Shown here piece after piece: positions 5,499 to 53,441 of a stretch of 64,000 nucleotides of DNA (the stretch's first letter is position 1; every line of letters begins with the position of its first letter). Where the stretch lies: positions 56-64,055 of the forward strand of contig JAFXIF010000053.1 of NCBI GenBank assembly GCA_017533325.1, read 5' to 3'. A program made the position numbers and the translations under genes. This DNA is from Alphaproteobacteria bacterium (GTDB taxonomy: Bacteria > Pseudomonadota > Alphaproteobacteria > CAAHEQ01 > UBA3637). Under the pieces are notes generated by a model. That model did not search any database and was not told the origin of the DNA. It saw only the letters and a program-made list of their open reading frames with translations.

Positions 5499-6143
5499 TT
5501 GTTTTTAGCCTGTTTTTCCTTAAGCTCAACCGTTTTTGCGCAAAATGCCTTTTGGTCTTTTGACACAAATAATGATGAATTGAACATTCCTCTTCAGTGC
5601 GATGGACAATTTGATGAAACGCGTGGCGGTGTTTTCTTGCCGACACCGGAAGAGCTTTTTGATTATGGCGAAACCTTTTTGCTAGAACGCGGAAAAGATA
5701 AAAACAATGCCGCCTATTGCTTACTCTCTGCCGCTCTTCAAGGCCATGTAGAAGCACAATACCGATTGGCACAGTTATATAACAAAGGAATTATTTTTCC
5801 GCAAAACGATTTAGCCGCTTATAAATGGTCTTTTTTAGCCTCTTTATACGGGCATAAAAAAGCCGAACAAATGGCTCTTACACTTGAGCAACTTCTTTCG
5901 ACAAAAGATATTGATTTAGCCACAAATTCAATCAAAGATATGCTTCCTTCAATTACTTCAATTAAAAATGCCGATTTATCAAAAATCAATGATAATTTAA
6001 AGGCAAAAAAAGATGAACTGGCTAAAATCAATAAAGAAATTGATGATATTTTAGGAATTAAATTTATGCCTCCTTCAGGTGGCAAGAAAGGGTCTGCCTC
6101 AAGAATGCCAATCACTCATTTTTCAGAAGCAGACAGGATGTAA
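5499..6143 (+). CDS. Sel1-like repeat (SLR/TPR) secreted protein; start uncertain (see finding on the A-tract)
   Basis: AAYCLLSAALQGHVEAQYRLAQLYNKG...AAYKWSFLASLYGHKKAE are Sel1-type repeats. The track start is a TTG inside what looks like a signal peptide. Confidence 0.6.
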   Translation: MFLACFSLSSTVFAQNAFWSFDTNNDELNIPLQCDGQFDETRGGVFLPTPEELFDYGETFLLERGKDKNNAAYCLLSAALQGHVEAQYRLAQLYNKGIIFPQNDLAAYKWSFLASLYGHKKAEQMALTLEQLLSTKDIDLATNSIKDMLPSITSIKNADLSKINDNLKAKKDELAKINKEIDDILGIKFMPPSGGKKGSASRMPITHFSEADRM

Positions 6144-6146
6144 AGC

Positions 6147-6503
6147 ATGAAGCTTTTACAATTGTTTGCTTTAATTTTCTTTTGGTCAGTATCTGTTCAT
6201 GCTGAGGATTTTTTAGCAAACACAAGTGATATTCCAATCATGAATGGACTTCAAATCAATGTTGCCGAACAAATGGATTTTGACACTCCCACCGGTCAAC
6301 TTCTTGTTTTAGAGGGTATCTCAATAAAAAAAACAGGGGATGAGATTTTAAAATTTTATCAAACAACTCTTCCTCAGCTAGGGTGGAAAGAAAAATCAGA
6401 CGGCGTTTTTTTAAGACAAGATGATTCCTTAAATATCGTTATTTTAAAAAACAAAGCCCCCTCTAAAGTGCGTTTTGATATATCCTTAACAAGCGACAAA
6501 TAA
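6147..6503 (+). CDS. Hypothetical secreted protein
   Basis: 118 aa with signal peptide MKLLQLFALIFFWSVSVHA; tightly follows the previous gene. Confidence 0.5.
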   Translation: MKLLQLFALIFFWSVSVHAEDFLANTSDIPIMNGLQINVAEQMDFDTPTGQLLVLEGISIKKTGDEILKFYQTTLPQLGWKEKSDGVFLRQDDSLNIVILKNKAPSKVRFDISLTSDK

Positions 6504-6542
6504 GAACCATTTGTTTTTCTTGACAAAACTTGATAAAATAAG

Positions 6543-6571
6543 TTGACTTTTCTTTTTATTTAGTGTATAAA
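6543..6571 (+). promoter_or_regulatory. Sigma70-like promoter for rpsT (TTGACT-N17-TATAAA)
   Basis: TTGACT at 6543-6548, 17-nt spacer, TATAAA at 6566-6571, about 43 nt before the rpsT ATG. Confidence 0.4.
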
Positions 6572-6613
6572 GAAGGCCTTAAGTTTAAAATTTTTCAATT
6601 GAGGAATAAAAAT

Positions 6614-6874
6614 ATGGCCAATATTAAATCGGCAAAAACACGTGTAAGACGCAACACTAAAAAAGAAAGAGTCAATGCTGACCGTTTAAATGCAGTCAGA
6701 ACTGCCACAAAAAAAGTTCGTGCTGCTATCTTAGCCGGTGACAAAGAAGCTGCTCAAGCAGCATTCAAAGTTGCTGAATCAGCTTGGGCTCGCGCCGGTG
6801 TTCGTAACACAGTTCACAAAAGAACAGCTTCTCGCAAAATCTCAAGATTAGCTGCTGCTGTTAAAGGAATGTAA
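6614..6874 (+). CDS. rpsT: 30S ribosomal protein S20
   Basis: MANIKSAKTRVRRNTKKERVNADRLNAVRTATKKV... is a typical S20. GAGG lies upstream of the ATG at 6614; the track ORF starts earlier at 6563. Confidence 0.9.
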   Translation: MANIKSAKTRVRRNTKKERVNADRLNAVRTATKKVRAAILAGDKEAAQAAFKVAESAWARAGVRNTVHKRTASRKISRLAAAVKGM

Positions 6875-6902
6875 TTTTACATCGTGTAGCCAAAAAAATT
6901 AA

Positions 6903-6927
6903 AGCACTTTAAGAGTGCTTTTTTTTA
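6903..6927 (+). terminator. Intrinsic terminator of rpsT
   Basis: AGCACT-TTAAG-AGTGCT hairpin followed by T8. Confidence 0.6.
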
Positions 6928-6940
6928 TGAAAGGACCCTT

Positions 6941-7585
6941 ATGTCAAAAATAATTTTATGGGATTGGGATAATACCTTAGCAGATACATTCGGTGCAATT
7001 TTAGTCGCTCAAAATGTGATGAGACAAGCATATAATCTTTCTCCTTGGACAAAAGAAGAAGCTAAAATTGCAATGAATAGTAGCGGAAGAAATTTAATCA
7101 AAAATCTTGTCGGCGAAGAAAATGCCTTGCAAGCCCGTCAAATATTTTTAAAAGCTTATGAAGAAAATGCTTCCGAAATTGTGTTAAAAGAAGGTGCAAA
7201 AGAAATTGTTCACATCACAAAAGAACATGGCTATATTAATATTTTAGCCAGTAATAAAGCCGGACCTATTTTAAGAAATGAAGTTGAAACACTCAGCTTA
7301 ACAAAATTTTTTGATAAAATTATCGGTGCTGAAGATTTTGAACATGATAAACCTTCCAAAGAGTTTACCGATTCTGCCATTAATGGATATACTATTGATG
7401 AACTTTATTCTGTTGGTGACGGAAAAGCAGACATCAAGATGGCTCACAATTATCCAAATGGTAAAGGTATTTTGGTATGGACAGATCCAAACACACCGGA
7501 ATTTAACGAAATTAAACCGGATATTGTTTGCTCTTCTTTGGTGGATTTAAAAGCAATTTTAACAAACCAAAAGCAACGTTCTTAA
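6941..7585 (+). CDS. HAD-superfamily hydrolase (phosphatase-like)
   Basis: N-terminal DxDxT motif (ILWDWDNTLADT) and a late GDGKADI motif. Confidence 0.7.
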   Translation: MSKIILWDWDNTLADTFGAILVAQNVMRQAYNLSPWTKEEAKIAMNSSGRNLIKNLVGEENALQARQIFLKAYEENASEIVLKEGAKEIVHITKEHGYINILASNKAGPILRNEVETLSLTKFFDKIIGAEDFEHDKPSKEFTDSAINGYTIDELYSVGDGKADIKMAHNYPNGKGILVWTDPNTPEFNEIKPDIVCSSLVDLKAILTNQKQRS

Positions 7586-40452: not shown

Positions 40453-42897
40453 TTATGCCTGCTCTAAATAAGCTTGAACCAATGCATCAGTATCTTGAAT
40501 TTGTTTAGCTAACCGCTCTGCTAAAATAACACTCTTATTCCCTGAGGAATATATCTTTAAAAGCGGTCCCAATCCACTTAAATCAACATCAAGGATAACA
40601 GATTCATGGATTGCTGGTCTTGAAACCAAAATAGCATATTTTCTTTCAGCAAACTCTTTACCCATAATAAAATTCATTTCTCTTGGCGTTAAATTCCATG
40701 TTGCATAATCTGATGGATTTGCTTGTGGATTTCTAAAGAAAATAACTGTTTGACATTGACCTCTAATAACATCGCCGAGTCCATTATCATCTAAAAATCT
40801 TGGTTGCTGGAAGGCACATAAATAAGCTTGACGTTTTTTACGTCCTTCACGAAGCCCAACGATAAAGCTATCTTTAAACATTGGATGTTCAAGCATAGGA
40901 GCCGTTTCATCAATCATAATTAAACTTGGTGTTCCCATAACGGTTGAAAGAGTTTGAATTCGATACATAACATAACTGATAACTGCAGGCGCCAATACAC
41001 TATCTTGGAAAATAGTTGTAAAATCAAATGCCATATATCTGCTTGATAAATCAAGATTATCTGTTAACGAGTTAAAAACACGTCCATATTGATCATCATT
41101 TACCCATCTAAAGAGTTCTCTTCGCATAAACCCATTTGGAGCAAAACAACTTTTATAAAGGTTTTTAAGCAATCTTTCATCCGGTTTTAAATATTCAAAT
41201 GCTGTTGTAACCGCTCTTGCTATTTCTTGTTCAGAAACAGCGTCTATTCCACCGGTAATATCACGCATCCATGTTCTTAAAAAAGCTCTTGTGTCTGCTG
41301 AATCAGGCACAGCAAACGGATTTAACGAAACAGATTCTTCACCACCATCAAAACGAACATAAGGAGCTCCTTGCATTAATGCAAAAACCTTAGCACCATT
41401 ATTACGATCAAAGAAATATGTTCTTAAATCAGGGATACGCATAGACTGACCGGCTAAGAATGAAAATAAAGTTGTTTTACCCTGACCTGTTGGCCCAATT
41501 AAAACAGTATGAGCAACAGCATAAGGTTCTTCAGAAACGTGAAATTGAAATGCATAGGCTGTTCCTGAAATTGTTCTGAAATAAGAAAGCGGCACAGGAC
41601 CCCAGTCTGATTTTTGACGCCCTTCAGCTGTTTTATCAATACAAATAGCGCAAGCCACCACTCGAGACAAATATAAAAACGTTCTCGGATAAATATCATA
41701 AGTTGGGAATTGGGCAAAAAATGTTGCTTGAGAAGCCCAACCTTCTCGAACTGGTGTTACATTATATAAACGACAAATTTTTTCAATTTCCTCTTGCCCG
41801 AATTTTAATTCATTTTTAGAATATCCATAAACAAAAATAGTCATAGCATATTCATTTAAAGTTTGCCCATCAGCATCTGATTGATCCATCCATTCCAGAG
41901 CCGTATTATACTGGGCCATCACGTTTGTTGAGAATGTTGTCAACCAAGCCATTCTTCGTTGTTGCATTAAAAGCATATTTGCCTTAACCATTGGAATTGC
42001 TTTGATATTATGAGTTAAAGTAACTTCACAATCAATGCTTAAAATATCAGCAATCATTTGCTCATCCATAAAATCCCCAGGCTTTCTGATACCGATACAA
42101 AGAGCATATTTTTCAATATCACCTGAAAAGAATTTTATAATGCCTTCATCTTTTGTAAAATGAATATAATCTGCGGTTAATAAAGCATTTAAAGATTCGC
42201 CTTCTTCCAATCCGATTCTTGGTTGTGGAACAGAAAGAGGACTTGCTAACTGTGAAAAAAGCCAAAAAGGACTTTTATCTTTATGCTTCATTGGTGTTTT
42301 TTCAGAAATAAGAACCGGTTGATATGCATCCAAAATTGAAGTCAAAGCAATTGTTGCTTGTTGCAAATCATCTAATGCTGTTTTTCTGTCATTTACAGAT
42401 AAAACAATATAGTGTTTATTCCTAAACACTCGACTCATACTTTCAGACCATTTTAAAGAAACTTGACGCAATAATTTTGAATCTTTATGTTCACCTTCTT
42501 CACCTAAAACAATTCTTTCCCTGATTGTAATAACACGAGAAACAACTTCTAAAGATGCCATTGAATCAACCCACTGTTTACGGGCATTCATTAATGCAAA
42601 TCTTTCAGAAGCTGTTAATAAAGTTGTGTCAGCTCCCGTTATTTCAAATACACGCGCAAGAGAACCATTTCTTAAATGAATGGTTGCTCCATCTTCATCT
42701 AACCGACTAAAAGGCAAAAAATCAGAAACTCTTGTTTCTTTTGGTTTGGGCAAAATCATGTCTCCCAATTTTGTTACAAAGACAGACATGATAAACATTG
42801 CTGCAATAACACCAATCACTGCAACAAGTGTTGAAAAAGAGGAAGCCCCCTGTGCCAAAAAATCAAATACATTCATATCAAATTGAATATTATTCAT
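40453..42897 (-). CDS. virB4: Type IV secretion system ATPase VirB4
   Basis: 814 aa with Walker A GPTGQGKTT and Walker B-like LIMIDET; directly downstream of virB3. Confidence 0.88.
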   Translation of the reverse strand: MNNIQFDMNVFDFLAQGASSFSTLVAVIGVIAAMFIMSVFVTKLGDMILPKPKETRVSDFLPFSRLDEDGATIHLRNGSLARVFEITGADTTLLTASERFALMNARKQWVDSMASLEVVSRVITIRERIVLGEEGEHKDSKLLRQVSLKWSESMSRVFRNKHYIVLSVNDRKTALDDLQQATIALTSILDAYQPVLISEKTPMKHKDKSPFWLFSQLASPLSVPQPRIGLEEGESLNALLTADYIHFTKDEGIIKFFSGDIEKYALCIGIRKPGDFMDEQMIADILSIDCEVTLTHNIKAIPMVKANMLLMQQRRMAWLTTFSTNVMAQYNTALEWMDQSDADGQTLNEYAMTIFVYGYSKNELKFGQEEIEKICRLYNVTPVREGWASQATFFAQFPTYDIYPRTFLYLSRVVACAICIDKTAEGRQKSDWGPVPLSYFRTISGTAYAFQFHVSEEPYAVAHTVLIGPTGQGKTTLFSFLAGQSMRIPDLRTYFFDRNNGAKVFALMQGAPYVRFDGGEESVSLNPFAVPDSADTRAFLRTWMRDITGGIDAVSEQEIARAVTTAFEYLKPDERLLKNLYKSCFAPNGFMRRELFRWVNDDQYGRVFNSLTDNLDLSSRYMAFDFTTIFQDSVLAPAVISYVMYRIQTLSTVMGTPSLIMIDETAPMLEHPMFKDSFIVGLREGRKKRQAYLCAFQQPRFLDDNGLGDVIRGQCQTVIFFRNPQANPSDYATWNLTPREMNFIMGKEFAERKYAILVSRPAIHESVILDVDLSGLGPLLKIYSSGNKSVILAERLAKQIQDTDALVQAYLEQA

Positions 42898-42909: not shown

Positions 42910-43200
42910 TTATGGAGCAAGTTTGTTTCCTTTATCAGGATAAATATTTTTTGAAGGTGTGGCCATTGGCCCATACGTTAACATCATTTTGGATAAATGT
43001 GGTTCTTTAAAAGAATAGGCGGCAATTAAAATATGAGCTAATCCGATTGTTACAATAAAATAAAGCGGGCTTATATCAAAAGCTGTGATGCAAACAAATA
43101 AAATACCAGCTTGAATGGCAAAATTTACAATTGCCGGATACATGGGTGCCCAAAACACTCGTGGTGGCATAGCAACAGCTTTTAAAACCGGTTCTTTCAT
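42910..43200 (-). CDS. virB3: Type IV secretion system protein VirB3
   Basis: 96 aa with two TM segments, located immediately upstream of virB4. Confidence 0.7.
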   Translation of the reverse strand: MKEPVLKAVAMPPRVFWAPMYPAIVNFAIQAGILFVCITAFDISPLYFIVTIGLAHILIAAYSFKEPHLSKMMLTYGPMATPSKNIYPDKGNKLAP

Positions 43201-46701: not shown

Positions 46702-46703
46702 AT

Positions 46704-46719
46704 TGTTTCACGTGAAACA
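46704..46719. promoter_or_regulatory. parS site 1 (perfect)
   Basis: TGTTTCACGTGAAACA, 3 nt after the gatB stop codon. Confidence 0.8.
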
Positions 46720-46720
46720 T

Positions 46721-46752
46721 AAAAAAAGAGCGATTATATCGCTCTTTTTTTT
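46721..46752. terminator. Intrinsic terminator of gatB
   Basis: AGAGCGAT-TAT-ATCGCTCT (46727-46745) with an A-run and a T-run. Confidence 0.7.
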
Positions 46753-46871
46753 ATAATGAAGAAATAAATCGTCTTTATCTATACAACAAAGATAATACTA
46801 TATATAAAATGTTAATATATTTATAATATCTATTATATAAAAATATATTATTTAATCATATTCAAAACAAA

Positions 46872-46887
46872 TGTTTCACGTGAAACA
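46872..46887. promoter_or_regulatory. parS site 2 (perfect; core of a 32-bp palindrome, 46864-46895)
   Basis: AAAACAAA-TGTTTCACGTGAAACA-TTTGTTTT. Confidence 0.8.
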
Positions 46888-46990
46888 TTTGTTTTATTTA
46901 TTGAAAGTAAGATATATTATATTTAATATTATCTATTATAAAAAAGAGAATTTTAATTTAAAATTATCATTCTTTACATCCTTCATGTAA

Positions 46991-47006
46991 TGTTTCACGT
47001 GAAACA
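46991..47006. promoter_or_regulatory. parS site 3 (perfect; 24-bp palindrome, 46987-47010)
   Basis: GTAA-TGTTTCACGTGAAACA-TTAC. Confidence 0.8.
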
Positions 47007-47095
47007 TTACTCATCTTATCAAACAATATAAATAAAAAAAATAAATACTTTTTCGTTCTATGAGATTTAATTCCAATCTTCTATAATGATAAATA

Positions 47096-47111
47096 TGTTT
47101 CACGTGAAACA
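47096..47111. promoter_or_regulatory. parS site 4 (perfect)
   Basis: ATGTTTCACGTGAAACAT. Confidence 0.8.
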
Positions 47112-47245
47112 TGAATATAATACCAAAAAACTATCTATTTTATTATCATATAAAATAGATTAAAAAAGACAATATTTCAAAAACATAAAATTAAAGAGAA
47201 TATTTTAATCTTTTGTATATTTTAAAATAATATAAAAAATAATAA

Positions 47246-47261
47246 TGTTTCACGTGAAACA
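47246..47261. promoter_or_regulatory. parS site 5 (perfect; 24-bp palindrome, 47242-47265)
   Basis: ATAA-TGTTTCACGTGAAACA-TTAT. Confidence 0.8.
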
Positions 47262-47390
47262 TTATATAGACATATTAAAAAATAATGTATATTTATATAA
47301 CATTATTTTTTCACACAAACCTGGTAATAAATTATTTAATTTTAATAAAAGGACTATTCATTAAAAAACTATTTTATCTTATTATAAACA

Positions 47391-47406
47391 TGTTTCACGT
47401 GAAACA
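47391..47406. promoter_or_regulatory. parS site 6 (perfect)
   Basis: ATGTTTCACGTGAAACAT. Confidence 0.8.
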
Positions 47407-47571
47407 TATTTATAAATTTTATTTAACTTAATTTGTTTTTACATCAGAGTTAAAAATACAAACTCTTATTCATCAATTGATCTGTTTTTATAAAAATTAC
47501 CAGATTTTAAATTAATTTAATACTGAAACAAATTATTATATATAAGTAAAATCTTAAGTAACCCTATATAA

Positions 47572-47587
47572 TGTTTCACGTGAAAAA
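47572..47587. promoter_or_regulatory. parS site 7 (1 mismatch: TGTTTCACGTGAAAAA; flanks palindromic across 47564-47595)
   Basis: CTATATAA-TGTTTCACGTGAAAAA-TTATATAG. Confidence 0.6.
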
Positions 47588-47698
47588 TTATATAGATTAT
47601 CCATATAAATAAATATATTTATGTTATTAAATAATCCCTATTCGATTTTATAATAAAAAAATAAAACTATTTACAATTATTTTCTATATTCACAACAT

Positions 47699-47714
47699 TG
47701 TTTCACGTGAAACA
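47699..47714. promoter_or_regulatory. parS site 8 (perfect; 24-bp palindrome, 47695-47718)
   Basis: ACAT-TGTTTCACGTGAAACA-ATGT. Confidence 0.8.
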
Positions 47715-47800
47715 ATGTAAAATATAAATCAAGGAAAAATTTTATTACATTATAATAAAATATATTTCAAATAAATTCATTTTATCCAGTTAAAATGAAA

Positions 47801-47816
47801 TGTTTCACGTGAAACA
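47801..47816. promoter_or_regulatory. parS site 9 (perfect; 32-bp palindrome, 47793-47824)
   Basis: AAATGAAA-TGTTTCACGTGAAACA-TTTCATTT. Confidence 0.8.
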
Positions 47817-47923
47817 TTTCATTTATTTCTTTATCTGGTAAAAAAAAGACACCCCATATTTAATATTATTTATAAAAAAAGAACTTTAATTAAAAATTAT
47901 CATTCTTTACATCCTTTATGTAA

Positions 47924-47939
47924 TGTTTCACGTGAAACA
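47924..47939. promoter_or_regulatory. parS site 10 (perfect; 24-bp palindrome, 47920-47943)
   Basis: GTAA-TGTTTCACGTGAAACA-TTAC. Confidence 0.8.
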
Positions 47940-48027
47940 TTACTCATCTTATCAAAGAATATAAATAAAAAAATAAATACTTTTTCGTTCTATAAGATTT
48001 AATTCAAATCTTCTATATTGATAAATA

Positions 48028-48043
48028 TGTTTCACGTGAAACA
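48028..48043. promoter_or_regulatory. parS site 11 (perfect)
   Basis: ATGTTTCACGTGAAACAT. Confidence 0.8.
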
Positions 48044-48139
48044 TATTTATATAAAAAAAATCAAGCACCCTACTCTGTTTTATCTTATTTTTATAATATC
48101 TTTTTAATTTAATTGATTAAAAAATTTTATATTCCATAA

Positions 48140-48155
48140 TGTTTCACGTGAAACA
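48140..48155. promoter_or_regulatory. parS site 12 (perfect), abutting the parB terminator
   Basis: ATGTTTCACGTGAAACAT. Confidence 0.8.
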
Positions 48156-48188
48156 TAAAAAAAAGAGCGATAAAATCGCTCTTTTTTT
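48156..48188. terminator. Intrinsic terminator of parB
   Basis: AGAGCGAT-AAA-ATCGCTCT (48164-48182) with an A-run and a T-run. Near-identical to the gatB terminator module. Confidence 0.7.
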
Positions 48189-49074
48189 ATTCCAATGGAC
48201 CCCCAATACTTAATCGCTGTAAAATTGCATCTAACTTATCCAAATTATCGCATTTAATTTGGATATCACCAGCATGTCCATTCCATTTAATTGTTAATTT
48301 TGCAGCCAAAACACTGCTTAATTCATTTTCTAACACAATGATATCATCTGGTTTTTCAACAGATTGACGTGATTTTGCCAAACCACTTCCTTTTTTAGAG
48401 GCTAATCTTTCCGTTTTACGAACGCTATACCCTTTTTTAAGAACCTCCATAGCTAAAGAAATAGGATCTTGTGCCGATAAAAGTGCTCGGGCATGGCCAA
48501 CAGTTAATTCTTTTTTTTCAACCATCTGCTTAATTTCATCCGGTAATTCTAATAAACGCATCATATTAGACAGATGACTGCGACTTTTTCCAATAACTTT
48601 TGATAATTCCTCTTGCGTATACTTAAATTCCTGTAACAAACGTTTATAGGATTCAGCTTCCTCTAACGGATTTAAATCTTCACGTTGCAAATTTTCAATT
48701 AAAGCAACTTCTAAAGCGTCTTTATTTGAAAATTGCTTTATAATCACCGGAACTGTTTTTAACCCAGCCATTTTTGAAGCTCGAAATCTTCTCTCACCGG
48801 CAATTATCTCATAACCAGTTGATTTTTTTGGATTTTTTCTAACCAAAAGAGGTTGTAAAACCCCTTTTTCTTTAATAGATAAAACCAAATCAGCTAAAGC
48901 ATCAGTTGCAAAAACTCTTCGCGGTTGATATGGACTTGGAACTAAGTCCTCAACATCAACAAAAGAAATACCCTCAGGAGGCTCAGAATTAGCCGTAGGA
49001 GCTGATTCATAAACCTCATCATCCTCACCCATTAAGGCACTTAAACCTCTACCTAAACGCGTATTCTTTTCCAT
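48187..49074 (-). CDS. parB: Chromosome partitioning protein ParB (Spo0J)
   Basis: RLGRGLSAL, the ParB-box GERRFRA(S) and an HTH region; 295 aa. Confidence 0.93.
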   Translation of the reverse strand: MEKNTRLGRGLSALMGEDDEVYESAPTANSEPPEGISFVDVEDLVPSPYQPRRVFATDALADLVLSIKEKGVLQPLLVRKNPKKSTGYEIIAGERRFRASKMAGLKTVPVIIKQFSNKDALEVALIENLQREDLNPLEEAESYKRLLQEFKYTQEELSKVIGKSRSHLSNMMRLLELPDEIKQMVEKKELTVGHARALLSAQDPISLAMEVLKKGYSVRKTERLASKKGSGLAKSRQSVEKPDDIIVLENELSSVLAAKLTIKWNGHAGDIQIKCDNLDKLDAILQRLSIGGPLE

Positions 49075-49852
49075 TTACTAAAAATTCCTTTTCTCTTTTT
49101 AAAACTTCAGCAGCTAAACGTAAATAACTTTGCGCCCCTGCACTTCGATAATCATAAATCATAACCGGCAATCCATGTGACGGAGCCTCGGGAATGCGCA
49201 CATTTCTTGGTATAAGAGTATCATAAACCTGATCACCAAAATACTTTTTCACATCACTCACAATTGATTTTGATAAATTAGAGCGTCCATCAAACATTGT
49301 TAATACAACCCCATGAACCATTAAATTAGGGTTAAATGTTTTTTGAATACGTCCAATTGTCTTCATTAAATCCGCCACCCCTTCTAATGCTAAATATTCA
49401 CATTGGACTGGAATAATCACACAATCAGAAGCAGTTAATGCATTCATTGTTAACAAACCAACTGCCGGCGGACAATCAATAAAAATATAATCAAAATCAT
49501 CAGCTCTTTCGAGAGCTTTTTTTAAGAAAAACTGCGGTTTATCCTCTGTTGCCAATTCAATATCAACACCTAAAAGCTCCTTACTGGCTGGTAAAACATA
49601 TAAATAAGGTATTTCTGTTTTACAAATACAATCTTCAAGATTTTCCCCACCAACTAAAACAGTATAAGAATTTTTCGTTCCTAAACGACGCTTTGCACCC
49701 ACACTTACTGTTGCATTTCCTTGAGGATCTAAATCAATAACAAGAACTTTTTTTTGAGCGGCAGCTAAAGCTGTTGCCAAATTAATGGTTGTGGTTGTTT
49801 TTCCCACACCACCTTTTTGATTAGATACTGAAAAAACACGTGCTTTTTTCAT
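49049..49852 (-). CDS. parA: Chromosome partitioning ATPase ParA (Soj)
   Basis: Deviant Walker A NQKGGVGKTT. The start is set at MKKARVF, whose ATG overlaps the rsmG stop codon by 1 nt (TAATG). The track ORF extends to 49885. Confidence 0.92.
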   Translation of the reverse strand: MKKARVFSVSNQKGGVGKTTTTINLATALAAAQKKVLVIDLDPQGNATVSVGAKRRLGTKNSYTVLVGGENLEDCICKTEIPYLYVLPASKELLGVDIELATEDKPQFFLKKALERADDFDYIFIDCPPAVGLLTMNALTASDCVIIPVQCEYLALEGVADLMKTIGRIQKTFNPNLMVHGVVLTMFDGRSNLSKSIVSDVKKYFGDQVYDTLIPRNVRIPEAPSHGLPVMIYDYRSAGAQSYLRLAAEVLKREKEFLVNGKEYAFR

Positions 49853-50460
49853 TAATAAACAACCTCCGTTATTGTTATGATACAACCGGTATCGCTTGTT
49901 AAACTATTTTGTTTCTTCCATTTGCAAGTATAAGATATTTTTGAAAGTTCTTCATCAATATTTTGCCCTTTTAGAAGTAAAAAAACAGTTTCTTTCGTAT
50001 AAAATGACTGTGATAAATTTAATAACAAATCTACCTGCCCTAAAGCTCTTGAAGTAATAACATCCGCTTTAACTGATTTTACATCCTCAATACGTTGATT
50101 TAAAATCGTTAAATTTAAATCTAAAAGACGGGATACTTCTTGTAAAAATACTGATTTTTTATTATCACTCTCTATTAAAACAACCTTTTCTAAAGGACCT
50201 TTTAAAACTTTATTTAAAATAGCAATAACAACTGCCGGAAAACCGCCACCAGATCCTAAATCAACCAAAACTTTTTTATCATTTGGAATTAAAAAATAAA
50301 GTTGAGCAGAATCTAAAATATGTCTATCCCAAAGAGATGAAATTTCTTTATTTGAAACCAAATTAACCGCTTTTTGCCACTTTAAAACAAGCGCCATATA
50401 GCGCTCCAATAATTTTTTTGCAGGTAAAATTTGGTTTTCTAATTGTTTCACGTGAAACAT
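49852..50460 (-). CDS. rsmG: 16S rRNA (guanine527-N7)-methyltransferase RsmG (GidB)
   Basis: LLERYMALVLKWQKAVNLVS...RHILDS, and SAM motif DLGSGGGFP. The start is proposed at MFHVKQ (ATG 50460), inside a parS site. The alternative upstream ATG at 50490 cannot be excluded. Confidence 0.85.
   Translation of the reverse strand: MFHVKQLENQILPAKKLLERYMALVLKWQKAVNLVSNKEISSLWDRHILDSAQLYFLIPNDKKVLVDLGSGGGFPAVVIAILNKVLKGPLEKVVLIESDNKKSVFLQEVSRLLDLNLTILNQRIEDVKSVKADVITSRALGQVDLLLNLSQSFYTKETVFLLLKGQNIDEELSKISYTCKWKKQNSLTSDTGCIITITEVVY
50444..50459. promoter_or_regulatory. parS site 13 (perfect), overlapping the rsmG start codon and N-terminal codons
   Basis: TGTTTCACGTGAAACA; the minus strand reads ATG TTT CAC GTG AAA CAA = MFHVKQ. 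Confidence 0.75.
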
Positions 50461-50544
50461 CCCCCAAAAACTATTATAAATCTTAACCAAACATTAACTT
50501 TTTTATATGAATTTTGCAAGTATTTTTTTATAAAAAAAAGAAAA

Positions 50545-50560
50545 TGTTTCACGTGAAACA
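50545..50560. promoter_or_regulatory. parS site 14 (perfect; core of a 34-bp palindrome, 50536-50569), intergenic
   Basis: AAAAGAAAA-TGTTTCACGTGAAACA-TTTTCTTTT. Confidence 0.75.
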
Positions 50561-50588
50561 TTTTCTTTTACATTAAAATTACTAAAAA

Positions 50589-51068
50589 TTAATTAAAAAT
50601 AAACATAATATTGTTTAAATTATCAAAATCTTTCTTCATTGTGCTATTTACCTTAACAGTAATCGCATCCATAAAAGCATTCACTAATTTATTACATTTA
50701 TTTTTATCAATATTTTTTAACTCAATAAAAAATTGCTTCCCATCAACAGGACCAATATTCCAATCAAATGCTCCAAAATTATAATTAAAAGATTCTTTTT
50801 TCAAATTTTCATAATTTCCCATTGAAAAAGAACGAATATCATTAATAAGTGTTTGAATTTGATTAATTAAAGAAGAATCGGTTAAAACAGGTTTAACCTC
50901 TTCTTGTTCAACAACTACATGCTCTGGCCTTGTTGTTTCACGTGAAACATTTTCTGTTTTTTGAGAAATTATCGGTGCATTATATGCATTTGTTTTTTTC
51001 TCACTTAAAATATATCCCCCTAACAAAACAAGTCCTGTTATAAATGCAAAAAAACTAATCCCCTTCAT
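50589..51068 (-). CDS. Hypothetical membrane-anchored protein (contains an internal parS)
   Basis: 159 aa with an N-terminal TM segment (ISFFAFITGLVLLGGYIL). Overlaps the dnaQ stop by 14 nt. Confidence 0.5.
   Translation of the reverse strand: MKGISFFAFITGLVLLGGYILSEKKTNAYNAPIISQKTENVSRETTRPEHVVVEQEEVKPVLTDSSLINQIQTLINDIRSFSMGNYENLKKESFNYNFGAFDWNIGPVDGKQFFIELKNIDKNKCNKLVNAFMDAITVKVNSTMKKDFDNLNNIMFIFN
50934..50949. promoter_or_regulatory. parS site 15 (perfect), inside the hypothetical CDS (encodes ..VSRET..)
   Basis: TGTTTCACGTGAAACA. Confidence 0.7.
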
Positions 51069-51759: not shown

Positions 51760-52529
51760 AAAAAAAACCTAATAAAATAAATAAACTTTTTAAATTATAA
51801 ATAAAAATCAAGAAGATATCAAGCATAAAATCTCACCCAAAAAAACAGATTTAATATTTAAACACATATCAAAAATAAAAAAATATTTAAAATCAATATG
51901 TTACAAGTATAAATATATAAAAAGTCATTCATACGACGTAGTTGTGGATAACTTTAAATAACTTGGATAACATTTGCTTTAGAATAAAAAAATTATAATT
52001 ATCCAAATTCATAAAATATCTATTCACATCCCCAAATGAGGTATAACTTACTTGTGGATAAATATGCAAAATAAGGATTCGAACTTGAATCATCACGATT
52101 CGTGTTTGGGGATAACTTTTAGTAAAAAACAAAATTTAAAATTATTCACAGTATCCACAATACCTATTACTAAAAAATATATATTTTATATAAATAAATG
52201 AAATTTTATTGTGGATATATTTCTATATCTTTTTTGTAATGAACATCTTTATGTTTTGCAAAAAAGGAAGGAAGAGAATGCTTTTAAAGAGTAAATAATA
52301 ATCTTTGATAATCACCCTTAACAAAAAATGATTTTAAAGCCCATAGAGCTACATATTTTATATTTTGGATATAATTAGTGGTATGGTAAAAAGTGATGCT
52401 TAAAACGTGCATAAAACTATTATTTGTAAACATATAAAAAAAATTTAATCTACTGTAATGATAGTTATATATATCATAAAAAAACGCTCGTATCTTTTGA
52501 TAGGAGCGTTTTTTTATATTTAATGTTGT
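51760..52529. other. Candidate chromosomal replication origin (oriC): DnaA-box cluster, GANTC cluster and AT-rich flanks in the dnaQ-trxB intergenic region
   Basis: Perfect TGTGGATAA at 51943-51951 and 52053-52061. One-mismatch boxes at 51999-52007 (TTATCCAAA), 52107-52115 (TGGGGATAA), 52142-52150 (TTATTCACA), 52151-52159 (GTATCCACA) and 52210-52218 (TGTGGATAT). GANTC at 52076, 52087 and 52097. The only ORF here (51929-52132) looks spurious. Confidence 0.55.
52478..52515. terminator. Hairpin terminator downstream of trxB
   Basis: ACGCTC...GAGCGT arms with an A-run and a T-run. Confidence 0.5.
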
Positions 52530-53441
52530 TCAAAGTAAATATTTTTCAGCACTTAAAGCTGCTATAGCACCACTGCCGGCTGAAATAATTGCCTGTTTAT
52601 AAGTATCTTCTTGAACATCTCCACAAGCAAAAATTCCTTTTATAGATGTTTCCATTGTTCTTTTATTTGTTTTAATATATCCATTTTTTGTTAATTTTAA
52701 TTTTTTATCCACAAGAGATATATTTGGTTTTGTTCCAATTGCTTCAAAAACCCCATCAATATTTAAAAACTCTTCTTTGTTTGTTTTTAAATTTTTAATT
52801 TTTATTGTGGATAACTTTTTTTCACCAATAAATTCAAGTGGTTCTGTGTTATTTAAAATTTTTATTTTTTCATTTTTGAATAATTCATCTAAAAGTTTCT
52901 TTTCTCCTTTTAATGAATTATTCTTATTAATTAAAAAGACTTCTTTTGCTATTTTTGACAAAAAGAGAGATTCGTAAAGAGCAGCGTTTCCTCCCCCAAT
53001 AACTGCAATTGATTTGTTTTTATAGAAAAATCCGTCACAAGTTGCGCAAATTGAAATACCATTTCCTTTAAATTGTTCTTCTCCTTTAATATTTAACCAT
53101 TTTGGACTTGCTCCGGTTGCTAAAATAATTGCATCTGCTGTGCCATTTTTTATACTGTGTGTTTCAAAACGAAAGGGTTTAGTTGAAATGTCTAAATTTA
53201 TAACTTCATCTTGAATGATATTTATTCCCGTATGAATGGCTTGGTTTTTTAAATTTTCCATTAAATCAAATCCGGATATGTTAATAAATCCAGGAAAATT
53301 TTCAACTTGATGTGTTCTTGTTAATTGTCCACCAATTGTTGAGCCGGTGACAAGAGTTGTTTCTAAACCTGCTCTAGAGGTGTATATAGATGCCGTATAA
53401 CCAGCAGGACCTGAACCAATAATTAAAACTTTTGTATGCAT
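52530..53441 (-). CDS. trxB: Thioredoxin-disulfide reductase
   Basis: GSGPAGYTA, redox CATCDG and GGGNAA; 303 aa. Confidence 0.93.
   Translation of the reverse strand: MHTKVLIIGSGPAGYTASIYTSRAGLETTLVTGSTIGGQLTRTHQVENFPGFINISGFDLMENLKNQAIHTGINIIQDEVINLDISTKPFRFETHSIKNGTADAIILATGASPKWLNIKGEEQFKGNGISICATCDGFFYKNKSIAVIGGGNAALYESLFLSKIAKEVFLINKNNSLKGEKKLLDELFKNEKIKILNNTEPLEFIGEKKLSTIKIKNLKTNKEEFLNIDGVFEAIGTKPNISLVDKKLKLTKNGYIKTNKRTMETSIKGIFACGDVQEDTYKQAIISAGSGAIAALSAEKYLL

Follow-up and report, generated by a model that had tools for sequence, protein, structure and literature searches.

Two questions listed as open in a review are why genomes have anywhere between 1 and over 20 parS sites, the sequences at which the partition protein ParB is loaded, and why these sites cluster (PMC7333895). 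Both are raised by a 64,000-nt stretch of an alphaproteobacterial genome (assembly GCA_017533325.1, contig JAFXIF010000053.1, positions 56 to 64,055 of the forward strand; hereafter, the window), which carries 12 parS sites at 46704–48155, between gatB and parB. An earlier reading by a model that saw the letters alone (the sequence-only reading) took this cluster for a tandem array resembling a plasmid centromere. What is the array, and how did it arise? Our analysis indicates that it is probably a functional multi-site ParB-loading centromere of the chromosome of an uncultured low-GC alphaproteobacterium. That as many as 12 sites bring a dosage benefit is less certain than the centromere identity, since one site is enough in several model species and relatives of this organism have 3–4.

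The parS array and its setting

We searched the window for the parS motif TGTTTCACGTGAAACA, tolerating 0–2 mismatches. The search returned 15 matches, 14 of them perfect, and reproduced every position given by the sequence-only reading, including the copy at 47572, which has one mismatch (C15A) and reads TGTTTCACGTGAAAAA. The chance expectation for such matches is 0.05, and none of 100 shuffled sequences reached 15. All 15 palindromes (14 perfectly, one with a single mismatch) conform to the consensus tGTTNCACGTGAAACa of chromosomal parS. They are confined to 4.25 kb (46.7–50.9 kb), 12 of them within 46704–48155, and no match to TGTTTCACGTGAAACA with up to two mismatches was found in the remaining ~60 kb of the window. 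The sites are canonical chromosomal parS restricted to the par locus in the window, as had been proposed. This confinement of all 15 copies rules out, within the window, a dispersed palindrome akin to repetitive extragenic palindromes (REP) or miniature inverted-repeat transposable elements (MITE).

The array itself consists of the unstranded parS 1 to 12 (46704–46719, 46872–46887, 46991–47006, 47096–47111, 47246–47261, 47391–47406, 47572–47587, 47699–47714, 47801–47816, 47924–47939, 48028–48043 and 48140–48155). Cores are perfect in 11 of the 12, parS 7 being the one with the mismatch. The array begins 32 bp from the parB stop and holds about one site per ~120 bp, or ~8 sites/kb (12 in 1.45 kb). 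Start-to-start distances are 168, 119, 105, 150, 145, 181, 127, 102, 123, 104 and 112 bp, in agreement with the irregular spacing of 102–181 bp noted earlier. Tandem Repeats Finder (TRF) detected no periodic unit in the array, and division of the spacings by 10.5 (hand calculation) revealed no consistent helical phase. Thus the dense cluster that had been called a tandem array is real, but it has no periodic unit and is irregular, with one diverged duplication.

The sites occupy the convergent, non-coding gap between gatB and parB (46702–48186; 1,485 bp), the most AT-rich stretch of the window (18% GC versus 33% in the rest). The flanking stops (gatB, 46701; parB, 48187), the AT-richness and the lack of any open reading frame (ORF) of 60 aa or more in the gap were all correctly described by the sequence-only reading. 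Nearly all ORFs of 25–48 aa in the gap contain 'MFHVKH', which is ATG plus parS read as protein; we rejected them as genes because they are artefacts of this reading. At a permissive setting, an Rfam scan of 46–53 kb yielded no more than sub-threshold chance matches, located on terminators. At both ends the array adjoins a hairpin that has a GC stem with runs of A and T beside it. The terminator-like hairpin after gatB (46719–46754, plus strand), seen in the sequence and in the repeat output, and the intrinsic terminator of parB (48155–48190, minus strand), bidirectional in form, are nearly the same in sequence (97% over 36 nt), and a parS stands ahead of both. A consensus terminator scan returned the parB hairpin and did not return the gatB one. 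Promoter-like matches inside the array show no excess (24 versus 21.4 ± 5 in shuffles). Given two terminator-like hairpins and no genes, little transcription should enter the array, and we infer that the gap between the two convergent terminators is a transcription-free zone.

The gap is preceded by plus-strand gatC, gatA and gatB (GatB matching Pfam GatB_N and GatB_Yqey) and followed by minus-strand parB (48187–49074; 295 aa; ParB_N, HTH_ParB, ParB_C), parA (49049–49885; in gene calls of relatives the start is at ~49852, giving 267 aa) and rsmG (49852–50460; 202 aa as called in the same-species contigs L001 and L130). Housekeeping genes lie on both sides (gatCAB, rsmG, a proteobacterial-type dnaQ, greA, xseA, tadA, rluB, rsmD, tkt). 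The window is chromosomal.

ParB and ParA were assigned by Pfam and NCBIfam matches; among named homologues of ParB, the nearest carry the annotation 'Alphaproteobacteria bacterium'. The best solved-structure match of ParB is the Caulobacter protein (6T1F, the parS complex, and 7BM8, the CTPgammaS form; E = 2e–65). A GERRxR motif for binding of cytidine triphosphate (CTP) is present, the alignment to 6T1F showing 'agerrfra', and plasmid RepB/PRTRC models score below cut-off. At the equivalents of Caulobacter R173, T179, A184 and G201 the protein has R, M, E and G (RXXG class), with the numbering offset set by how the RTAG residues are spaced when aligned to 6T1F. A mutational scan found that parS-specific variants need R173 and prefer G201, that only P, D and E are not tolerated at position 179, and that any residue is accepted at position 184 (10.1101/724823). 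By these features the adjacent ParB is of the canonical Caulobacter-like, parS-specific, CTP-motif chromosomal type. Because its specificity residues match the parS class, binding to the array sites is to be expected.

Placement near a putative origin was also supported. Seven DnaA boxes (two perfect, five with one mismatch) fall within 276 bp at 51943–52218, in the dnaQ–trxB gap (51760–52530), at a distance of 3.8 kb from the array. In all seven relatives checked, 3–6 DnaA boxes occur in the corresponding gap upstream of dnaQ. We regard this cluster as the probable, predicted oriC. The array, which holds a single imperfect DnaA box versus seven at 51.9–52.2 kb, is not. A minimum of cumulative GC skew and a switch of gene orientation lie nearby, at ~56–56.7 kb.

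Three perfect sites lie outside the array. parS 13 (50444–50459) overlaps the rsmG start codon; its offset from the parB start (–1385) is identical in every relative with ParB identity of at least 71%, and through the overlap ParB binding may be linked to how the rsmG-parA-parB operon is expressed. The RsmG protein begins MFHVKH since a perfect parS overlaps the rsmG ATG (50444–50460, minus strand). parS 14 (50545–50560) lies between rsmG and a conserved 159-aa ORF (50589–51068, minus strand), and parS 15 (50934–50949) lies within that ORF.

Growth of the array in one lineage

The array contains one diverged internal duplication of ~310 bp with three sites per copy. Copy A (46790–47135) carries sites 2–4 and copy B (47722–48070) sites 9–11, the paralogous pairs being 2/9, 3/10 and 4/11. 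Between the copies the cores are identical at 48 of 48 positions versus ~81% identity outside them (P ~4e–5), a pattern that points to cores under constraint, or being homogenized, as the spacers drift. Apart from this single duplication, the spacers are unrelated to one another. A module of parS plus terminator occurs at both ends of the gap. In L008, a relative with 75% ParB identity, the gatB and parB terminators are unrelated in sequence, which argues that the module was duplicated in the lineage of the window.

We compared the same locus in relatives ranked by amino acid identity of ParB. In the most distant ones (L142–L144; 60–63%), holA or another gene follows parB and there are no sites downstream of parB; 1–3 mostly imperfect sites are found upstream of rsmG. 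Relatives at 71–75% (L008, L140, L141) have the convergent parB–gatB junction with 3–4 sites in a gap of 283–362 bp. In L116 (72%) six sites within 425 bp follow parB, and in the sister species L007 (97%, with genes at ~85% nucleotide identity) there are at least seven in 760 bp before the contig ends. The window and L130 have 12 sites in the convergent gap of 1,485 bp. The interval, whose comparison the sequence-only reading had proposed, is thus variable in copy number (0, 3–4, 6, at least 7, 12), and on this series the array is a progressive, lineage-specific expansion. Homology between the window and L007, as assessed by BLAST, is gone ~25 bp past the first parS, and parS 12 is the sole array site with surroundings alignable to L007. 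Such loss is unsurprising for AT-rich intergenic DNA at 85% gene identity. It makes an orthologous site-by-site comparison impossible, and hence we make no claim on turnover rate.

The array is not an assembly artefact of one contig. Scaffold L130, which comes from a different sample, spans parB to gatB and repeats all 12 sites without any shift in offset; it is 99.35% identical and contains one scaffold gap of 10 N. About a dozen same-species contigs (L001–L004, L006, L131–L139) reproduce the first 1–4 sites, likewise 32, 144, 248 and 371 bp beyond the parB stop, before they break off within the array. A mis-joined duplicate is also contradicted by the internal copies, which are only ~81% identical outside the cores. 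Both full-length assemblies, the window and L130, are based on short reads. In this species, metagenome contigs assembled from short reads almost always stop 150–400 bp into the array (L001–L006, L131–L139). Since the same-species contigs stop within it, the array evidently defeats short-read assemblers, and the centromere/origin region will be fragmented or absent in many metagenome-assembled genomes (MAGs).

On the other side of the locus, a VirB4/TrbE-type ATPase of type IV secretion (814 aa; 40453–42897, minus strand) and a 96-aa ORF (42910–43200) adjoin gatCAB. This arrangement is conserved in L008, L130, L140 and L141.

Loading, palindromes and rival explanations

A high-density platform for ParB loading, as put forward by the sequence-only reading, remains the best account of the array: cognate ParB and ParA genes adjoin it, the cores are conserved, and binding is predicted from the protein sequence. 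By analogy with the mechanism established for the ParB proteins of Caulobacter and Bacillus, each 16-bp palindrome would serve as an independent loading gate, at which a ParB dimer would bind parS and CTP, close to a clamp and slide off, leaving the palindrome open to another dimer. With twelve such gates in 1.5 kb, the loading flux into the origin region would be multiplied. A higher flux would in turn give a denser and more force-resistant ParB–DNA complex for pulling by ParA, and probably for loading of SMC. The gene-free gap with a hairpin at each end would keep RNA polymerase from stripping the clamps. The array would have grown by local duplication and formation of new sites, with selection keeping the cores perfect. 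In single-molecule experiments in vitro, both the clamp-loading rate and the force resistance of condensates rise with 7, 13 and 26 parS (PMC8299390).

Several points weigh against this account. ParB binding to these sites in this organism is an inference from sequence, and the silence of the gap is drawn from consensus scans only. The restriction of sites to the par locus covers the 64-kb window only, and further sites may lie beyond it. In several model species one parS is enough for segregation (PMC7333895, PMC7022226) and close relatives manage with 3–4 sites in the same gap, so that twelve may be redundant. Finally, recognition of a 16-bp core by ParB leaves unexplained a further property of the sites, their site-specific extended palindromes.

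Most intergenic sites lie at the midpoint of a longer perfect palindrome, and the flanks that pair vary among sites (for example, AAAACAAA/TTTGTTTT, CTATATAA/TTATATAG and AAAGAAAA/TTTTCTTT around the core). Thus parS 2 and parS 9 each centre a perfect 32-nt palindrome (46864–46895 and 47793–47824); symmetry continues for 4 bp per side at parS 3, 5 and 8, for 7 bp at parS 11 (48021–48050) and for 9 bp at parS 14 (50536–50569); and the flanks of the mismatched parS 7 keep 8 bp of dyad symmetry per side (47564–47595). The mean perfect extension of the 12 array sites is 4.2 bp per side versus 0.54 at random centres of the same DNA (P < 5e–5). For the 14 perfect sites it is 3.6 bp versus 1.2 when flanks are cross-paired among sites (permutation test, P < 5e–5). 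As cross-pairing gives only 1.2, neither a shared extended consensus nor the composition of A/T runs explains the symmetry. A compensatory two-base change, present in both arms, separates the paralogues at 46872 and 47801, each of which is still a perfect 32-nt palindrome. Folded as DNA hairpins, extended sites reach –9 to –13 kcal/mol versus –3.2 for the core alone. Sites that lie against a coding sequence or a terminator have perfect cores with an extension of 0–1 bp: parS 1 (46704), 3 bp past the gatB stop and abutting the gatB terminator; parS 12 (48140), abutting the parB terminator; parS 13 (50444); and parS 15 (50934). parS 1 and parS 15 are without flank symmetry.

The same tendency appears in arrays of other phyla recovered by the genome scan described below, where the mean extension is 2.3 bp versus 1.2 for cross-paired flanks and 0.4 at random centres (~630 sites). 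Among the matches listed, the excess is clear in 34 of 78 arrays of other taxa. Arrays with extended palindromes in unrelated phyla include L106, L064, L026, L085, L095 and L025. Candidate causes may be template-switch correction of quasi-palindromes, fold-back birth on a half-site, or selection for a hairpin or cruciform. We offer only tentatively, and with more doubt than conviction, the generalization that non-coding parS arrays of many phyla are built from and kept as site-specific long palindromes. If it is true, formation of hairpins or cruciforms would be part of the birth of parS (by fold-back or template switching) or of ParB loading. We found no description of site-specific extended palindromes at parS in the literature.

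These palindromes feature in the most resilient rival explanation, namely that the sites are genuine parS whose extra copies bring no benefit and arose by mutation, through segmental duplication and hairpin-mediated template switching in non-coding, AT-rich DNA beside a palindrome. The array would then be tolerated as extra parS are harmless only near the native centromere. The internal duplication with its three sites and the parS-plus-terminator module at both array ends agree with such a history, and palindrome extension together with the compensatory change in two arms is what template switching is expected to produce. Moreover, relatives function with 0–4 sites in the gap, extra parS are tolerated only near the native locus, and self-reinforcing clustering has been proposed (PMC7333895). 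However, drift alone does not readily account for 11 perfect cores out of 12, nor for cores that remained identical at all 48 positions where the spacers diverged by ~19%. Independent arrays beside parAB in many phyla are likewise hard to explain without an advantage. On balance, we think purely neutral growth unlikely.

Considerably less credit is due to a structural role, in which palindromes of 24–34 nt would act as bidirectional terminators, insulators or cruciforms and the parS core would be incidental or secondary. The consensus scan does flag two sites as terminator-like, and both the hairpin energies of the extended sites and the compensatory change, which preserves dyad symmetry, would suit this role. 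Yet the only sequence common to all 15 sites is the exact ParB consensus, while the flanks differ; the stems are AT-rich, with just three G–C pairs; and there is nothing to terminate in a gene-free gap already closed by a hairpin at both ends. The four unextended sites, moreover, retain perfect cores. We consider this explanation very improbable. Hardly credible at all is a dispersed REP/MITE-like element, an unwinding region of oriC or an assembly artefact: the array is the most AT-rich part of the window and short-read contigs do break within it, but there is no copy at up to two mismatches outside 46.7–50.9 kb of the window, the DnaA boxes cluster elsewhere, all 12 sites recur in the independent scaffold L130, the paralogous copies have diverged instead of being identical, and comparable arrays occur in long-read MAG chromosomes (L011, L015, L052).

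Dense arrays elsewhere and known systems

To place the array among other genomes, we scanned 185,579 species, each represented by one genome, for three parS with gaps of 85–115 bp (spacings of 101–131 bp). This required spacing biases the spacing statistics of the scan, and we draw no conclusion on preferred spacing. The scan yielded at least 120 loci and, among the matches listed, at least 81 arrays with six sites or more, with up to 61 sites; the genome of the window was not among the matches listed. These counts are lower bounds, not a prevalence. Within the same set, an open frame of at least 100 aa is absent from 51 of 81 arrays. GC content is lower in the arrays than in the flanking DNA (median –7%), and many arrays lie directly beside parA/parB, across many phyla, at 6–20 sites/kb. 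Arrays beside parAB in other phyla belong to unrelated lineages, have independent origins and vary in position relative to parAB.

Examples include Clostridiales RUG611 (L045; 11 sites in 1.39 kb, 199 bp from parA), an Eisenbacteria MAG (L083; 12 sites in 1.5 kb) and a complete long-read alphaproteobacterial MAG chromosome (L052, OY970269.1; 11 sites in 520 bp, upstream of rsmG-parA-parB). L052 is one of three complete long-read MAG chromosomes with comparable arrays, together with L011 and L015. Achromobacter deleyi LMG 3458 (L112, NZ_CADIJO010000004.1) carries 9–10 sites in ~1–1.4 kb (5902–7322), upstream of mnmG-rsmG-parA-parB, and from ~6134 to 7119 there is no start of an ORF of at least 120 aa. 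As a cultured betaproteobacterium, A. deleyi is tractable for testing what dense arrays do.

Some clusters stand apart. A Granulosicoccaceae MAG has 61 parS-like sites in 4.8 kb at ~60-bp spacing (L129, 47–4851), a MAG labelled Enterobacterales has 20 sites in 1.7 kb (L099, 85–1769) and a 'Deltaproteobacteria' MAG has 19 in 0.9 kb (L109, 34–952). No parB was found within the 8 kb fetched around any of the three. To our knowledge, Enterobacterales are without chromosomal ParABS. A contig binned as a Methanobacteriaceae archaeon holds 11 bacterial-type parS in 551 bp (L061, 4149–4699); it is probably a mis-binned bacterial contig, and of interest if not. A scan of viral contigs for three closely spaced parS gave 1 match in 2.9 million contigs, which indicates that dense arrays are not a phage feature.

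In literature of incomplete coverage, we found no survey of dense parS arrays as a class, only engineered arrays and the Myxococcus papers. Dense, non-coding, AT-rich arrays are common in uncultured bacteria, and the model-organism picture of few scattered sites is therefore incomplete. Such arrays can mark the origin/centromere in MAGs, and they break short-read assemblies at the origin region. The value of the array described here lies in its clean expansion series, in the evidence that arrays are widespread and in the extended palindromes. In its lineage, site number rises in natural steps within a single conserved gene context, which can be used to test whether parS number tunes ParB loading; partition-complex size and SMC recruitment could be related to parS number in the same series.

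How does the array compare with known centromeres? Plasmid F sopC consists of 12 repeats of 43 bp and R1 parC of 10 iterons of 11 bp, both regular, head-to-tail and bound by plasmid-specific proteins. The window array shares with them many binding sites in a short non-coding stretch beside a partition operon. Unlike them, it has no repeat unit, its spacers are unrelated, and its parS and ParB are of the universal chromosomal type. We therefore reject a plasmid-type iterated centromere, given the lack of a period in TRF, the spacings of 102–181 bp, the housekeeping context and the Caulobacter-like ParB. The earlier description as plasmid-centromere-like does not hold for the same reasons: there is no fixed-period iteron, and ParB is chromosomal in type.

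In model species, parS sites are spread far beyond 1.5 kb and commonly lie within or between ordinary genes, whereas the window array has dedicated non-coding DNA with one site per ~120 bp. The consensus, the ParB family and the proximity to the origin are the same in Caulobacter, Pseudomonas aeruginosa, Corynebacterium glutamicum, Streptomyces coelicolor and Bacillus subtilis, where the sites serve for loading of ParB and SMC (PMC5815017, PMC4368675, PMC7333895, PMC7022226). P. aeruginosa has 4 of 10 parS close to oriC, S. coelicolor ~20–23 near the origin and B. subtilis 10.

The closest known system is that of Myxococcus xanthus, with 22 parS in 3.05 kb (24 by another count) ~4 kb upstream of parA and ~30–35 kb from ori (PMC3899335, PMC3778016); M. 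xanthus ParB shifts a 3.1-kb fragment of the cluster in vitro (PMC3899335). Both arrays are chromosomal, near parAB and the origin, and made of canonical 16-bp parS at irregular spacing, with ~7 sites/kb there versus ~8 here. They also differ. The window array is downstream of parB, in a convergent, terminator-bracketed and very AT-rich gap that can be shown to be gene-free, and belongs to a low-GC genome, versus the 9.1 Mb of Myxococcus. The Myxococcus consensus is TGTTCCACGTGGAACG with many variants, whereas the window cores are nearly all perfect TGTTTCACGTGAAACA. The Myxococcus cluster is bound experimentally; the window array is known from its sequence. The sequence-only reading had been aware of no chromosomal centromere organized in this way, a claim overturned by the M. 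xanthus cluster and by the arrays of six or more sites in the scan. With 12 parS in 1.45 kb, beside parAB and on a chromosome, the window array falls within the class of dense clusters (10 or more parS in a few kb, in that setting). It is a Myxococcus-type dense chromosomal parS cluster rather than a new architecture.

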